A stretch of 20,408 nucleotides of DNA. It comes from a virus (lineage: Duplodnaviria; Heunggongvirae; Uroviricota; Caudoviricetes). The stretch is taken from positions 1 to 20,408 of the IMG/VR virus record IMGVR_UViG_2737471845_000026. One strand, 5' to 3'. The notes beneath the pieces are model-generated. The model ran no database searches. It had not been told where the DNA came from and saw only the letters and a list, made by a program, of their open reading frames with translations. The position numbers were made by a program, and so were the translations under genes. Positions 7,341 to 16,033 of the stretch are shown one piece after another; positions within the stretch are counted from its first letter, which is position 1; each line of letters begins with the position of its first letter.

Positions 7341-7496
7341 TTACTCCTCAGATTCGTAAGCTGTGAAGACAGTGACCTCCGTCTGGCCGGTTCGGATTCG
7401 TACCTCGCAGAGGTCTTTCCTCATTACCAGTGCCGTCACTATGACGGTTAAACAGATGACGATCAGGGCGATTAACATCGCCTTTTGCTGCTTCAT
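7341..7496 (-). CDS. hok: Hok/Gef-family type I toxin (51 aa), closely HokD/RelF-like
   Basis: Translation MKQQKAMLIALIVICLTVIVTALVMRKDLCEVRIRTGQTEVTVFTAYESEE is a Hok-family hallmark. SD AAGGAG 9 nt upstream. The listed 70-aa ORF is an in-frame upstream extension. Confidence 0.9.
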   Translation of the reverse strand: MKQQKAMLIALIVICLTVIVTALVMRKDLCEVRIRTGQTEVTVFTAYESEE

Positions 7497-7834
7497 AGCC
7501 AGCTTCTCCTTGCCTTTCGGCACGTAAGAGGCTAACCTACATGTGTAAAGCATGAAATTGGCCTCAGATTAATGTTAAGCGTCTTGCCGGACGCGTAATG
7601 TTAACTGGGGCTTTTCTCTGTCTGCCTTACAGTGGCATGCCCGAGGCAGACAGCCTCAAGCACCCGCAACAATCTTACCGACACCGATAAGAAAACGCTA
7701 TTTTTTATTGCCAGAACCTTCTGCCCAGGCTAATGTATCCGCGTCAGAACGGCGCAATGCGCTCGCCTGAGATACGTTTACTTGTCATTGGTGGCAACAG
7801 ATAACGGCAATTGTTATTTCTGTTTGTTTCCTTC

Positions 7835-8146: not shown

Positions 8147-8446
8147 TCACTCACTGTTATCCTCCTGGAAAATAACCGCATGCCCCAGCTTCTCCGCCAG
8201 TGCCAGTTCTGCCTTAGCACCTGCTGACCGCTGCCAGCCTTTCAGCATGTAAATCGCATCCACGCAGCGTATCATCGCCATGCAAATATCCATGTAGTGT
8301 GGCTGTGTCAGCCCATCCGGAAGTACTGCCGGGTTTAAGACTGTATGCCCTTCACGTTTCAGTTCCTCTTCCGCCTTGTGAAACGCCTCACGGTTGAAAT
8401 TTTTATATCCCGTCATTGGGCCGGCAATATAAACTCTCACCCTCAC
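8147..8446 (-). CDS. DUF4406-like protein (nucleoside 2-deoxyribosyltransferase-like fold), 99 aa, GTG start
   Basis: N-terminus MRVRVYIAGPMTG is typical of this family as I recall it. GTG at 8446 overlaps the upstream stop (GTGA) and has AGGAG 9 nt upstream. Confidence 0.7.
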   Translation of the reverse strand: MRVRVYIAGPMTGYKNFNREAFHKAEEELKREGHTVLNPAVLPDGLTQPHYMDICMAMIRCVDAIYMLKGWQRSAGAKAELALAEKLGHAVIFQEDNSE

Positions 8447-8697
8447 TCCTGAACTCTCCTGTCGAAATAAACGTAGTTATTCACTGTGCGCAACGGCATT
8501 CCAAATTTTATGGCGATTTCTCTCCTGGAGACGCCACGCTGATGCAGTTTTCGCGCCAGCTCAATATCGCTCTGAAGATATTTTGCTGACTGGTGAAAAT
8601 CACCACGCAGAATCAGACTTATTCCCATCTCCCGGGCTTTCGTCCTGACCGCCGCCTCACTACGACCAATCAGACTGCCGATGCTTTTTACCTTCAT
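8443..8697 (-). CDS. Small HTH-containing DNA-binding protein, 84 aa
   Basis: ATG at 8697; helix-turn-helix-like segments (SLIGRSEAAVRTKAREMG and VSRREIAIKFGMPLRTVNNYV). Confidence 0.5.
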   Translation of the reverse strand: MKVKSIGSLIGRSEAAVRTKAREMGISLILRGDFHQSAKYLQSDIELARKLHQRGVSRREIAIKFGMPLRTVNNYVYFDRRVQE

Positions 8698-8753
8698 TGT
8701 TCCCGCGCACTGCCGAAGAATAAGGATTTCAGCCCGCACCCAGCCACGCCATC

Positions 8754-9299
8754 TCACTTCACATCCTCTCCGGAACAATTCATCTGCCGTATAATATCCC
8801 GGTGCTTGTTCAGCTCCTGCAGCGCGGCGCAGACACGTTCCCACTTCCGGATATGACTTTTTGCCCGGCGCAGTTCACGGTTTGCCATATGTAGCGATGG
8901 CAGCATTACATAGTCGGTATGTTTTTCGGTGAACGATGGCAGTGACCGCACAATATCCGCCACCGTTTCTGTTTTAATTTCTTCCTGTGTTGCCGCTTCC
9001 TGTACCGGTAATGCAACCCCCGCTGGCTGAGGAAAGGCTTTACCATCAGTTTCCGCTACCGATGCGGCTTTCAGTTCTGCTGGTAAATTCTCGCCTGGCA
9101 TGCAGTAACGAAATTTACCGTTCTGATTAACGCGTGCCAGCCGCCCTGTTGAGGTTACTACCGCCAGCGTGGAAGCAACCTTGCGAATGCTGACACCGAA
9201 CTTACCCGCCAGTTCCTCACACGTTTTAGCCCCCTCCTGGCCGATAAACTCAATCATCATGTCAGCGGTAACTTTTTGTTCGCCCACCCCGGTTAGCAC
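8754..9299 (-). CDS. Winged-helix-containing protein, C-terminal reading frame (181 aa from GTG), in frame with the upstream 49-aa ORF across a single TAG
   Basis: No credible RBS before GTG 9299 or ATG 9260. Same frame as 9366-9515, separated by TAG at 9366-9368 plus 22 stop-free sense codons. HTH-like KTCEELAGKFGVSIRKVASTLAVV. Confidence 0.4.
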   Translation of the reverse strand: MLTGVGEQKVTADMMIEFIGQEGAKTCEELAGKFGVSIRKVASTLAVVTSTGRLARVNQNGKFRYCMPGENLPAELKAASVAETDGKAFPQPAGVALPVQEAATQEEIKTETVADIVRSLPSFTEKHTDYVMLPSLHMANRELRRAKSHIRKWERVCAALQELNKHRDIIRQMNCSGEDVK

Positions 9300-12566: not shown

Positions 12567-12834
12567 GAATCAACCCTATTTTTTTGGATCTGATAATTTC
12601 TTCTGGAATCCCACTAACTGGAGTAGGGTGCAAATCAGGCCGGAGATCATGCGGAGTAACAATCCATTCCCCAAGCTCACAAAGCCTAATAACCCTCTCA
12701 CTAGGAACCCTGTTCCTGATAATCCAATTAAAAATGGATTGAGGCGATTTGAAACCAAACATGCGACTTACAGCAGAGGGAGAACCAATAGCCATAACCG
12801 CCTTTTCTGTAATGTTTTTGTATGTAGTGCTCAT
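12550..12834 (-). CDS. Cro/YdaS-like HTH regulator (94 aa from ATG 12834)
   Basis: First gene downstream of the operator-containing promoter, divergent from the repressor. SD GGAG 6 nt before ATG 12834; alternative ATG at 12846. Confidence 0.65.
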   Translation of the reverse strand: MSTTYKNITEKAVMAIGSPSAVSRMFGFKSPQSIFNWIIRNRVPSERVIRLCELGEWIVTPHDLRPDLHPTPVSGIPEEIIRSKKIGLIHENQA

Positions 12835-12861: not shown

Positions 12862-12889
12862 ATGATACTACATAAAGTAGAATTTGCAA
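12862..12889 (-). promoter_or_regulatory. PR-like promoter with an operator palindrome in the spacer
   Basis: Minus-strand -35 TTGCAA (plus 12884-12889), 16-nt spacer, -10 TATCAT (plus 12862-12867). The spacer contains the palindrome CTAC-N5-GTAG (12868-12880). Confidence 0.5.
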
Positions 12890-12934
12890 CTACGCAAAAT
12901 AGAAATGACGAATCAAGGTAACTGCTTTAATCTT

Positions 12935-12947
12935 CTACATATGGTAG
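12935..12947. promoter_or_regulatory. Second operator-like palindrome CTACATATGGTAG, overlapping the repressor ATG
   Basis: Same CTAC-N5-GTAG half-sites and same GAA flank as the site at 12868-12880; centred 67 bp away. Confidence 0.4.
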
Positions 12948-13393
12948 AAAACGCACATAAACATCGCGCATTCGCAACAAGACTTAAGTCAGAAATGGAT
13001 AGAAAAAACAAATCCATCAAAGACTTAAGCTTATCCACGGGCGTCACATACGAAATGGCGCGGCGCTACACCCTAGGCACAGCTAAACCACGCGACGAAA
13101 AACTCGAACGAATAGCAGAATTTCTGGGAGTTGAACCTGCATGGCTGGAATACGGTCAGCTAACAGAGAAAGGAATTGAACCAGCAGAAGATTCATTTGT
13201 AACACAAAGATCTGGTTCCAATAGCAATGGTGAATTTACTGAGTTAAGTGAAGATGAAAAGCGACTGATACGAACGTTTCGGGAGTTTCCACCAGTTGAA
13301 GCCAAGAATATGCTCCTGGCTTTTGAGATGAGGCTCAAGAAACTTTACGATTTCTACGAGAAATACGCCAGCACCCCACCACCTTCTGAGTGA
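12941..13393 (+). CDS. Prophage repressor, XRE/HTH family (RacR/cI-like), 150 aa from ATG 12941
   Basis: HTH KSIKDLSLSTGVTYEMARRYTLG; divergent from the cro-like gene with operator palindromes in between. Start is ambiguous (ATG 12941 without SD, ATG 12905, or TTG 12884). Confidence 0.75.
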   Translation: MVENAHKHRAFATRLKSEMDRKNKSIKDLSLSTGVTYEMARRYTLGTAKPRDEKLERIAEFLGVEPAWLEYGQLTEKGIEPAEDSFVTQRSGSNSNGEFTELSEDEKRLIRTFREFPPVEAKNMLLAFEMRLKKLYDFYEKYASTPPPSE

Positions 13394-13754: not shown

Positions 13755-14393
13755 ATGGAATTTAAAGATTTACCAATATCAATACAGGAAATGGCCGCTG
13801 ATGTGATTCGCTCGCAACTGGCGCGGAACCCAATGATATTAGTAGATAAAGTGTTCATCATAAATTTATCAAATCATGTCCGCAATTCTTTTACCGGACT
13901 GTATTCAGATTCGTTCACAAACAATCATTGTGTAGAAAATAAAGCAAAGCCCATTGCAGAAACGATAACGCAAAACATCAATACGAAACAAACCGAAGAA
14001 GAAATTGACCAGTTTACCCGAGATACTGGCTTAAAATGCAGGAAAGAAAAATCGCCATATGCGGGGAATATGTTTGTTTATGACAACCTTATCCGAATTC
14101 GTGGCGAAATTCCGACTGAATACCTAGCAAGAATTCACCGGGCATTACTTAAAAATCTGGAAACGGAAGTATTTGATGGCAATACCAACGGCTCCTTCGT
14201 GGTGTCAACTCTCGCAAAAGAGTGGGATACAGATAATCGCTGGAATGTTGCCACATGGTTATTCAGCAACAAAGCTGCTGCCCTGGAAGCTGCGGCCTGT
14301 ATTTGCGACCTGCTAAGGACAGACCGCAAATACAACCTGGATGTGTATAGCTATATTTATGCTGAACACTATCCGCTATGGATTAACTGGTAA
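13755..14393 (+). CDS. Uncharacterised soluble protein, 212 aa, AT-rich, in the repressor-adjacent exclusion-gene position
   Basis: ATG 13755 with SD GAGG (7 nt); alternative ATG at 13743. No TM segments or recognisable catalytic motif; lower GC than the core phage genes. Confidence 0.65.
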   Translation: MEFKDLPISIQEMAADVIRSQLARNPMILVDKVFIINLSNHVRNSFTGLYSDSFTNNHCVENKAKPIAETITQNINTKQTEEEIDQFTRDTGLKCRKEKSPYAGNMFVYDNLIRIRGEIPTEYLARIHRALLKNLETEVFDGNTNGSFVVSTLAKEWDTDNRWNVATWLFSNKAAALEAAACICDLLRTDRKYNLDVYSYIYAEHYPLWINW

Positions 14394-14603
14394 TTACAAA
14401 GCTGCACCAGCAGGGCCACGGCGACCAGCGCCACGATTGTAATCAATGATGCCATTATAAAGCGCATTATTTAATTTATCGTCGAATGCCGATTCTGTGA
14501 GCCCTAGCACTGAATGAGTTTTTAATAACCCTGATTGCCTGAGTTGATTAACCAGGCATTCAATCTGTTTTTCAATAATCGGATGTATTGGCTTGTTTGG
14601 CAT
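14394..14603 (-). CDS. Hypothetical protein, 69 aa, convergent with and abutting the 212-aa gene
   Basis: ATG 14603 with strong SD GGAGGATAAA-ATG; the stop codons of the two convergent genes are adjacent (14393/14394). Confidence 0.5.
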   Translation of the reverse strand: MPNKPIHPIIEKQIECLVNQLRQSGLLKTHSVLGLTESAFDDKLNNALYNGIIDYNRGAGRRGPAGAAL

Positions 14604-15290
14604 TTTATCCTCCATTGAAGTTACTGGTTGAGAATGGAGACCACACGTGACAGCGTGTTGTCGTGCGCCGGACACGGATAAGAATCCGGCACTGACAGTT
14701 TACTGAAAGAATATATCCCTGAAAAGTCAGGGCATAACTCGAAAGCGCACGGCGGAGGTGTCTTTTCCTTAGAAGGCTTGTCGTTAGATTTCTTCGACCG
14801 TGCGCTTCCGGTTGTGGCACTCCGCGAAATGGCGCGGCGGTAAGTATGGCGGGGTTATCCTTACCCCATTAGTGGCACCGGGTTGTCAGGTTGACCATAC
14901 GCTTAAGTGACATCCCCGCTGCAACAACCCATGTTGATTACCTTTTGGCGGGTATCCGTTTTTTGTTTTCCCTTGTGATACCAGCCCTTTTTAAAGTGAA
15001 TTTTGTGATGCGGTGAATGCGGCTAAGCGCACGCGGAACAGTTAAAAAGGACAGTTGACATTCGTATTGGTTCTTATGGGTGGGTTATCTGTATCCGGCG
15101 TTAATTGTTAACTGGTTAACGTCACCTGGAGGCACCAGGCATCGCATCAACAAAATTCACTTCAGTGATGAAAGGTGAGAGAAAATGTTGAATGTAGCTA
15201 TTGAAAACCAGAACGGGTGGAATTATAGTGCACCTGCACCTCATAAAACGGGTGCCGGGATTTGCACCCCGATGATCACTAGAGCGCATA

Positions 15291-15312
15291 ACCGCGCCAA
15301 AGCGGTTTTTTT
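15291..15312 (+). terminator. Intrinsic-terminator-like hairpin plus U-tract inside the leader upstream of rha (possible attenuator)
   Basis: ACCGC-GCCAAA-GCGGT followed by TTTTTTT; embedded in a larger inverted repeat GCGCATAA...TTATGCG. Confidence 0.45.
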
Positions 15313-15478
15313 ATGCGTAAAGCGCAGCCACATTCAGATTATGGTGGGGCGTATGGGGCCGTTTTCGGGCGGGCCGGATTCTCTAGTGACCGGTAGTGCA
15401 AACCCTGTACGTCTCACCACCCATGAGATTTGCACCTACGGTGGTGAGTTTACCAACTTATCACTAGAGGCTGCCATC

Positions 15479-16033
15479 ATGGCTACTATCCCTACCCTGT
15501 CTCACCCTGACGTAACCATCGAAAACGGTCGCGCTATCACTACGTCTGTTGCGATCGCAGAGTTCTTTGGCAAACGACACGACAACGTGTTACGTGCCAT
15601 CGCAAACATTGAATGCTCAGAAAAATTTAACGCCCTCAATTTTGAGGACGTAACGTACACCGACGCCAAAGGCGAAAAACGTCCAATGTACCAAATCACC
15701 AAAAACGGCTTCGTTTTCCTGGTGATGGGCTTCACTGGCAAAAAAGCCGCTGCATTCAAAGAGGCCTACATTGCTGAGTTCGACCGCATGGAGGCAGAGC
15801 TGCGTCAGAATAACACCCCACCAACTGACAAAATAATTCCTGGCGATGGTCGCACTCTGGTTGTTCGCTTCGACGAACACGGCAATATCAAATTCACCGA
15901 AACCGTTCCTGATGGTGCAATGGTCTGTACTCTGGATACCTTCCAGTTTTATCTGGAGAAACAGGGATGGACACTTGTAAACCGGAGCGCAATTAGAAAC
16001 ATGACTGTCGAACAATTGCTGCGTATTAAATAG
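15479..16033 (+). CDS. rha: Phage regulatory protein Rha (Rha domain), 184 aa from ATG 15479
   Basis: Rha-domain signature VTIENGRAITTSVAIAEFFGKRHDNVLRAIANIE...ITKNGFVFLVMGFTGKKAAAFKEAYIAEFDRME; SD AGAGG 8 nt before ATG 15479. The in-frame upstream extension to 15185 is judged non-coding. Confidence 0.75.
   Translation: MATIPTLSHPDVTIENGRAITTSVAIAEFFGKRHDNVLRAIANIECSEKFNALNFEDVTYTDAKGEKRPMYQITKNGFVFLVMGFTGKKAAAFKEAYIAEFDRMEAELRQNNTPPTDKIIPGDGRTLVVRFDEHGNIKFTETVPDGAMVCTLDTFQFYLEKQGWTLVNRSAIRNMTVEQLLRIK

Follow-up and report, generated by a model that had tools for sequence, protein, structure and literature searches.

The stretch of 20,408 nucleotides (nt) analysed here, called the window throughout and comprising positions 1 to 20,408 of the IMG/VR virus record IMGVR_UViG_2737471845_000026 (Caudoviricetes), carries between a convergent gene of 69 amino acids (aa) and the Rha-domain gene rha a segment, 14604-15478, which a first-pass annotation of the letters had described as one structured leader of 870 base pairs (bp). 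A single leader is not borne out, as the segment is a mosaic of two separate modules, a dicBF-type untranslated region (UTR) at 14662-15184 and a P4-type immunity cassette at 15201-15478. Judged from the alignments, the cassette, built of an IsrK-type and a C4-type RNA, appears to have been grafted at the dicB start codon onto the dicBF leader of a Rac-like prophage, and the 5' two thirds of the segment, which represent the untranslated leader of a dicBF-type operon, can be regarded as a separate and probably older module. The locus is explained by known RNA families, while its potentially new part could be an element of 115 nt at 14811-14925 together with the terminator module that it forms. 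Unless stated otherwise, all features lie on the + strand.

The cassette opens with the sigma-70-type promoter TTGAAA-17-TATAGT (15201-15229), the only sigma-70-like promoter detected in 14300-15600, the hexamers of which stand at a constant distance from IsrK in otherwise unrelated upstream sequences, namely two Stx-phage-type contexts, Gifsy-1, an Arsenophonus prophage and P4. Its predicted start at about 15235/6 is the 5' end of an IsrK/SeqA-type RNA of 77 nt (15236-15312), which scores 68.6 bits with Rfam RF01394 at a cut-off of 50, Rfam calls being judged by the curated gathering score of each family, and which thus combines a score above cut-off with its own promoter and its own intrinsic terminator. 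Inside IsrK reside box a1 (GATTTGCACC, 15259-15268) and box b1 (TCACTAGAG, 15276-15284), and its terminator (15290-15312, with the hairpin at 15290-15307 followed by a U-run) is the terminator-like hairpin with U-tract already noticed in the first-pass annotation and recovered at the same site by a terminator scan. Further downstream, a C4/CI-type antisense RNA (15337-15424) matches the model of Rfam RF01695 over its full length with 78.1 bits at a cut-off of 45. This RNA exposes an inverted copy of TCACTAGAG as box b' in a hairpin loop (15381-15389) and GTGCAAA as box a' in an exposed segment (15396-15402), possesses a 3' ACCACCC which is nearly invariant among relatives and includes in its 5' stem two conserved AUG codons of the orf45 type, situated 12 nt apart at 15341 and 15353. 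The downstream targets a2 (GATTTGCACC, 15427-15436) and b2 (TCACTAGAG, 15461-15469) follow, with b2 overlapping the Shine-Dalgarno sequence GAGG of rha (15467-15470), 8 nt before the ATG at 15479 from which a Rha-domain protein of 184 aa (15479-16033) is read. The N-terminal domain of Rha is Phage_pRha of Pfam, common to many phage proteins annotated as antirepressors. The whole cassette is crossed by an open reading frame (ORF) of 282 codons (15185-16033), the equivalent of eta of P4, which shares the frame of Rha and with its first 98 codons covers the isrK promoter, IsrK and C4.

The window contains exact complements of 7-10 nt between the boxes of C4 and the target boxes. The two direct copies of GATTTGCACC (15259 and 15427) and the three copies of TCACTAGAG (15276 and 15461 on the + strand, 15381 on the - strand) had been listed before and are all present, each of the two motifs having three matches in the window at 0.10-0.11 expected, a number reached in 0 of 100 shuffles. 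The repeats represent the boxes of a C4-type antisense RNA, both those of the effector and those of its targets, so that the suggestion of a small RNA (sRNA) locus was correct; equally, the proposal of an RNA element controlling rha is judged to hold, with the IsrK terminator as its internal terminator. Compared with shuffled sequences, the predicted fold of 15236-15490 is stable at z = -4.4, and that of 14660-14935 at z = -3.2.

Homologues were sampled from 160 IMG/VR loci and eight genome loci with coding sequence for the Rha protein or its upstream extension. A scan of the genome collection with the Rha protein provided the eight loci only, and the diversity came from IMG/VR; the 168 loci collapse to 61 distinct upstream sequences, with 58-61 sequences entering the analyses of the boxes. 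Matches to some part of 14394-16033 occur in 4756 of 5426 complete Escherichia coli genomes, at a median of two places and a maximum of 11 places per genome.

Among 58 distinct sequences, a1, a' and a2 change in concert and likewise b1, b' and b2, which amounts to 11 types of a', 17 types of b' and 24 combinations. Written as target and effector, examples are ATTTGCAC/GTGCAAA, CGTGGAAA/TTTCCAC and ATTGCTAC/GTAGCAA for the a boxes, and TCACTAGAG/CTCTAGTGA, TCATCGCGG/CCGTGATGA and GACTATCG/CGGTAGTC for the b boxes. Pairing was assessed by register-free duplex energies in place of column-based pair counts; by column on a MAFFT alignment, 55.6% of the b'-b2 cells are paired, a low value because the register of b2 moves by 1-2 nt from one box type to another. 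In stability, cognate duplexes exceed non-cognate ones by 6-9 kcal/mol, and the predicted b'-b2 duplex covers at least three of the four Shine-Dalgarno bases in 52 of the 58 sequences and at least two in all of them. Equally, helix 1 of C4 is 99.5% paired with 9 of its 17 pairs changed on both sides, four of the five pairs of helix 2 have changed on both sides, and these values are reached in 0 of 500 shuffles. The covariance analysis across related prophages, which the first-pass annotation had proposed as a check, is therefore positive, in that the stems of C4 covary and the box triplets change together. By this comparison the box pairings are maintained by selection, and the stems of C4 by compensatory change.

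The a and b boxes assort independently of each other (loci L001-L173, aligned to window positions 15254-15472; 58 distinct sequences), which suggests a two-key specificity code among prophages of the E. coli type. With such a code, prophages residing in the same host could be shielded from each other, or else be coupled. The RNA immunity logic of P4 and P1 is thus seen to recur, in at least 24 box combinations, in many of the E. coli-type prophage contigs that were recovered.

IsrK and C4 are structural homologues of seqA and the CI RNA of P4; some lambdoid prophages carry a system of the seqA/CI type, and P1, P7 and N15 use similar ones (PMC3632133). On the P4 sequence the same two Rfam models match the CI RNA (8420-8507) and seqA (8615-8692), and the arrangement is shared, with both models in the same order, a promoter directly ahead of seqA or IsrK and an ORF (8168-8812, 214 codons with three adjacent Met codons) which starts upstream, crosses seqA and CI and is in frame with its last 65 codons. 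As Forti and colleagues reportedly described in 1999, nested genes of P4, eta (197-199 aa) and kil (65 aa), overlap cI, and translation of eta from the promoter PLL makes transcription insensitive to immunity; the three adjacent Met start codons and the 65-aa kil of the P4 sequence partly agree with this description. Furthermore, the start of rha, MATIPTLSHP, resembles the start of kil, MATTLTPSHP, at about 84% over 50 nt (window 15479-15510 versus about 8334-8383 of P4); the first approximately 10 codons of Rha are homologous to kil, and therefore the recombination joint between cassette and cargo lies inside the coding sequence. On the other hand, the target here is a Rha-domain gene in a Rac-like lambdoid prophage and not kil with the P4 replication genes, P4 has about 78 nt extra inside the C4 5' region, and, while the CI RNA of P4 has been reported to work mainly via transcription termination (PMC4825925), b2 lies here on the Shine-Dalgarno sequence, so that a translational block is the simplest reading.

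With the immI region of P1 and P7 (c4-icd-ant) the cassette shares the C4 family and the overlap of the downstream boxes with a ribosome-binding site before a gene of the antirepressor type; it differs in having no icd-like coupling gene, in the IsrK-type terminator between a1/b1 and C4 and in its lambdoid prophage host. In immI, the loops of c4 are complementary to a1/b1 and a2/b2, and differences in the boxes set the specificity that separates P1 from P7. The C4 antisense RNA family of P1/P7 is listed in PMC2864571.

The only experimentally dissected lambdoid example is isrK-orf45-anrP of Gifsy-1, where promoter, IsrK, C4-like RNA, boxes and the twin AUG codons of orf45 all match the window in a base-by-base alignment, and where the downstream gene is antirepressor-like. 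Gifsy-1 is also the only locus from which binding of IsrK to Hfq and its activation of downstream translation in trans are known. Transcripts of Gifsy-1 read through the IsrK terminator yet are translationally silent, the short IsrK provided in trans activates orf45 and thereby the antirepressor-like AnrP, and the C4-like RNA has been named STnc1160 (PMC4825925). In the window, however, this frame is free of stops from 15185 onwards and joined to Rha, whereas orf45 of Gifsy-1 is closed upstream and overlaps anrP out of frame in an ATGA; AnrP starts with MTTQISV (at about 34076 of the Gifsy-1 locus), unlike Rha, and the Gifsy-1 locus adjoins antQ and is not part of an early-left operon.

Integrating these features, it is probable that the 3' third of the segment is an RNA immunity cassette of the P4/P1/Gifsy-1 type which gates the translation of Rha and which probably also controls how the kil and recE-like genes downstream are expressed. 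According to the sequence analysis, the promoter at 15201-15229 would produce the 77-nt IsrK with a1 and b1, mostly ending at its own terminator. From transcripts that read through, C4 (15337-15424) would be cut out as a stable RNA as in P1, P4 and Gifsy-1, a release that would involve RNase P processing and for which the near-invariance of the 3' ACCACCC among relatives is indirect support. Its boxes b' and a', the pairing and co-evolution of which are observed, would then pair with b2 and a2 upstream of rha and bury the Shine-Dalgarno sequence, and translation of rha would be blocked as the function of the family predicts. In P1, loss of translation of icd/ant leads to Rho-dependent polarity. 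By analogy with this and with timm of P4, the untranslated transcript may be exposed to Rho, with silencing of rha, kil and the recE-like gene as the outcome. IsrK, displaying the same boxes as the target, might act as a competitor, either for C4 itself or for the corresponding region of the long RNA, and so turn translation on, an effect that has been measured for Gifsy-1. Finally, transcripts from the upstream repressor-controlled operon might be read by ribosomes from 15185 across the whole cassette and thereby evade the RNA block in the manner of PLL and eta of P4.

The last step concerns the long ORF, for which a layout of the nested type is found, with a start upstream of the constitutive promoter and a frame running through C4 and in frame into the downstream gene. 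Its ATG at 15185 precedes the -35 hexamer of isrK (15201), occupies the position of the dicB start codon and stands 5 nt behind a Shine-Dalgarno-like AGGTGAG (15173-15179). Of 57 distinct variants, 53 have no stop in the frame of Rha over at least 294 nt upstream, with four to 13 stops in each of the other two frames. Translation through the cassette would be plausible by precedent, and the RNA genes stand whether or not the long ORF is translated. In treating one 282-aa protein from 15185-16033 as a refutation of the RNA element, the first-pass annotation was too strict; the open state of the frame is conserved, yet the RNA genes are real. Its statement that the segment has no convincing ORF holds for 14604-15184 and fails for 15185-15478, which is the 5' part of the 282-codon ORF.

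Several observations weigh against the gating of Rha by C4 and its extension to eta-like translation. Processing of C4, repression of rha and Rho-dependent polarity would all be taken over from relatives, the role of Rha as an antirepressor is suggested at the level of annotation, and the a'-a2 duplex of the window is weak (-11 kcal/mol). The Gifsy-1 experiments, which measured activation by IsrK and in which the co-expressed C4-like RNA did not act as a simple repressor, speak more directly for this activation than for repression by C4 (PMC4825925). For the long ORF, no codon-position signature is present in the upstream extension, with 92, 100 and 103 changes at the three positions, stop-creating substitutions are not significantly avoided (4 observed versus 5.4 expected, P = 0.37), and of two relatives that keep the RNAs, Gifsy-1 has the frame closed upstream of C4 and the one from Arsenophonus lacks it. 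The evidence that selection keeps the long ORF open is thin.

The strongest competitor draws on the same Gifsy-1 experiments (PMC4825925) and assumes positive control only: the isrK-C4-rha transcript would be silent in cis through pairing of a1/b1 with a'/b', the short IsrK would open it in trans, the orf45-type AUG codons at 15341 and 15353 would be translated, here directly into Rha, and free C4 would have no role as a repressor. The conservation of the twin AUG codons 12 nt apart speaks for such a mechanism, as does the centroid fold of 15236-15490, which pairs the boxes of IsrK with the loops of C4 in cis. It does not need, however, the covariation of a2 and b2 with the C4 loops, which is as tight as that of a1 and b1, nor the location of b2 on the Shine-Dalgarno sequence of rha; moreover, C4/CI is a proven repressor in trans in P1 and P4 (in part PMC3632133). 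As the sole mechanism, positive control is a possible but clearly less likely reading, although it and repression by C4 are not mutually exclusive.

Turning to the 5' module, 14662-15184 is homologous by blastn and alignment to the long UTR of the dicBF operon, which extends from ydfC to dicB in the Qin prophage of K-12. Over 14662-15159, the match to a non-coding stretch of about 500 bp in many E. coli lambdoid phages amounts to 82-83% identity, and in phage Tritos and in Qin of K-12 the matching stretch is the ydfC-dicB region that contains dicF. The homology stops at the dicB start codon, which corresponds to ATG 15185 of the window. Nearly invariant on both sides of dicF, the alignment with Qin breaks down in that dicB is replaced from its start codon by isrK-C4-rha and that the convergent 69-aa gene instead of ydfC precedes the leader. 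The dicBF UTR has been described, with the 5' end of DicF generated by RNase E and its 3' end by termination or RNase III (PMC5069750). In 36 distinct relatives the leader is mostly 90-100% conserved, except for three variable patches, the insert within a 10-bp inverted repeat, the DicF slot and 15044-15083. Conserved ORFs were sought in 14604-15184 and none was found; relatives show indels of one and two bases and their stop-free stretches are inconsistent, which argues against a conserved or hidden gene.

The 10-bp inverted repeat had been recognized in the first-pass annotation and consists of AAGCGCACGG at 14743-14752 and its reverse complement at 14798-14807. With its variable insert of 45 nt it forms a long-range helix (14743-14807), in which relatives show changes from G-C to G-U, one compensated pair and a few mismatches; the helix behaves as a + strand RNA helix, and the G-C to G-U changes are tolerated on the + strand only. 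For 14660-14935, RNAalifold predicts 69 pairs with no changes on both sides, since this set of sequences is too conserved.

Exactly in the DicF slot, the window has a terminator-like hairpin of divergent sequence, GGCGGGTATC/GATACCAGCC followed by a U-run (14947-14992). An identity of 14940-14995 with DicF was considered and dropped, with no match to Rfam RF00039 at expectation values (E) up to 5 or 10, even in a search restricted to 141 nt; only the position and the terminator shape are common to DicF and this hairpin. A comparison of duplex energies with ftsZ was uninformative, as DicF of K-12 itself reached z = -1.3 and the variant of the window z = -0.1. The terminator hairpin in this slot comes in at least 10 sequence families between nearly invariant flanks, among them canonical DicF, the window type, the cdtI type (GGCGGTACCAG..) and the P7 type (GCCCATCTTCGGGTGGGC). 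In the window, an A at 14983 breaks one pair of the stem, where the nearest relatives (L095 and L015) have C (-12.3 versus -18.5 kcal/mol).

Downstream of the slot, 14999-15154 is an STnc100-like segment which reaches 31.8 bits with Rfam RF02076 versus a gathering score of 47 and covers model positions 22-154 of 206 only, so that it is not counted as a member of this family. STnc100/PasD is likewise a prophage-borne sRNA family, and the 3' hairpins of its model align with two hairpins at 15099-15139, just upstream of the dicB-type start site. The first one pairs CGTTAA (15099-15104) with TTAACG (15116-15121) and takes the form CGCAGA/TCTGCG, with full compensation, in one relative (locus L150); the second, adjacent one is CCTGG-AGGCA-CCAGG at 15125-15139. 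In and beside the loop of the first hairpin stands the repeat GTTAAC-TG-GTTAAC, which the first-pass annotation had found correctly and placed four bases off its actual position of 15107-15120.

The potentially new part of the leader, the RNA-like element at 14811-14925, is composed of four helices, P1 (14811-18 with 14918-25), P2 (14822-26 with 14833-37), the variable hairpin P3 (14850-54 with 14864-68) and P4 (14880-88 with 14908-16), the last of which closes the nearly invariant loop GGUUGACCAUACGCUUAAG; the strands that join the helices are nearly invariant as well (CGGUAAGUAUGGC). A search of Rfam with the element yielded no family match in the window or in the copy of phage P7. In a distant search with 14660-14935, only the 3' part (about 14811-14929) recurs elsewhere. 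It follows the repressor gene in phage cdtI, in Stx2c phages and in Salmonella phage F1055. The cdtI copy lies about 285 nt after a strong, PL-like promoter TTGACA-16-CATAAT, and in phages P1 and P7 a distance of about 45 nt separates the C1 operator Op(ban) from the element, which precedes the transfer RNA genes. Copies are located in L006 (2748-2871), L179 (2501-2619) and L178 (2501-2598), and a scan of IMG/VR with an exact pattern added at least 119 loci, with 82 distinct core sequences.

Covariation in the element emerged only once the copies from P1/P7, cdtI and other contexts had been added. On 34 diverse sequences, 92.7% of cells are paired and 8 of 27 pairs have changed on both sides, counts that are biased towards this structure, since the four helices were derived from the same sequences; examples are GUUGUGGC/GCCACAAC to GUUGUGGU/ACCACAAC and, in helix 4 of the P1/P7 copies, U-A to C-G. 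The observed values are reached in 0 of 500 shuffles on four of five measures, and slid controls are 37-61% paired. In 200 of 210 occurrences, the next 30-80 nt or so behind the element contain a hairpin with a U-run, which is DicF in Qin and has other sequences elsewhere.

Candidate roles of the element are a regulator in cis of read-through, put-like or in the form of an attenuator, or a platform for processing or stability of DicF-type RNAs. In a tentative and rather doubtful joint reading, the element would represent an undescribed class of structured RNA which together with its terminator constitutes a mobile module heading early operons (P1/P7, cdtI-like, dicBF), and which would control read-through of this and later terminators as a put-like antiterminator or attenuator in phages that lack N, DicF being the terminator end of one version. 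If the element regulates the following terminator, the location of DicF as well as read-through of early terminators in N-less lambdoid prophages would find an explanation.

A leader of the nut/boxB or put type, through which antitermination would let RNA polymerase reach rha and recE, had been suggested in the first-pass annotation and is improbable. Its starting point, the boxB-like hairpin CCCTGAAAAGTCAGGG (CCCTGA-AAAG-TCAGGG), is indeed found at 14717-14732 and has CCCUGAAAAG in common with the lambda boxB. The four inner base pairs of this hairpin are nearly invariant, but in about half of the relatives the outer CC/GG has become CC/AC without compensation, so that the stem is not maintained; with its loop of 4 nt in place of a GNRA-like pentaloop, the lost outer pairs and, as the first-pass annotation had rightly stated, no N-like ORF in the window, it does not qualify as a nut site of the lambda type. 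The missing N-like gene would also fit an antitermination mechanism based on RNA only, as would the position of 14811-14925, which directly precedes an intrinsic terminator in the window and in 200 of 210 other occurrences, and its location near early promoters in P1/P7 and cdtI-like phages. Yet the repeats invoked are the boxes of C4, and with regard to HK022, the source of the known RNA-only antiterminators (the put RNAs putL and putR), the leader gave no significant blastn match to the genome, which also contains none of the conserved motifs of the element.

Databases finally present the region in a different light, as the Prokaryotic Genome Annotation Pipeline (PGAP) calls the 282-codon ORF a 'Rha family protein' in related E. 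coli prophages and Phage_ASH of Pfam (PF10554) matches the N-terminal extension (15185-15478) with E = 1e-13. The match of the same model in P4 (8168-8584) is an obsolete 'cI protein' ORF overlying the CI RNA gene, and the 'Ash' match here reflects, for this reason, a conserved RNA region read in that frame. That 15185-15478 is an ordinary N-terminal 'Ash' domain of a 282-aa Ash-Rha protein, with incidental RNA-like features, is thus highly improbable despite these calls, the open frame and the Shine-Dalgarno-like AGGTGAG, given a promoter and an intrinsic terminator inside the 'domain', covarying stems, variable codons that coincide with the RNA boxes and change in complementary triplets, and the missing codon signature and the closed frames described above. 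For annotation, this means that the 'Ash' N-terminal part of Rha in PGAP and Pfam consists of two small RNAs and their targets.

Minor observations concern the surroundings of the cassette. In one relative, PGAP calls a 'DicB pseudogene' of 99 nt just upstream of the 282-codon ORF (L001, 6659-6757). A third exact copy of the a box GATTTGCACC lies at 12627-12636 on the - strand, which is the sense strand of a ydaS/cro-like gene, at about 0.04 further copies expected. As an additional target of C4 it was rejected, for a relative with the same a type and different regulator genes has no such copy, and it is probably due to chance. The HTH repressor of the prophage is encoded at 12884-13393. In addition, a full-length sok antitoxin RNA is recognized by Rfam at 7494-7665 on the - strand with 115 bits, which implies a toxin-antitoxin locus of the hok/sok type in the same prophage.

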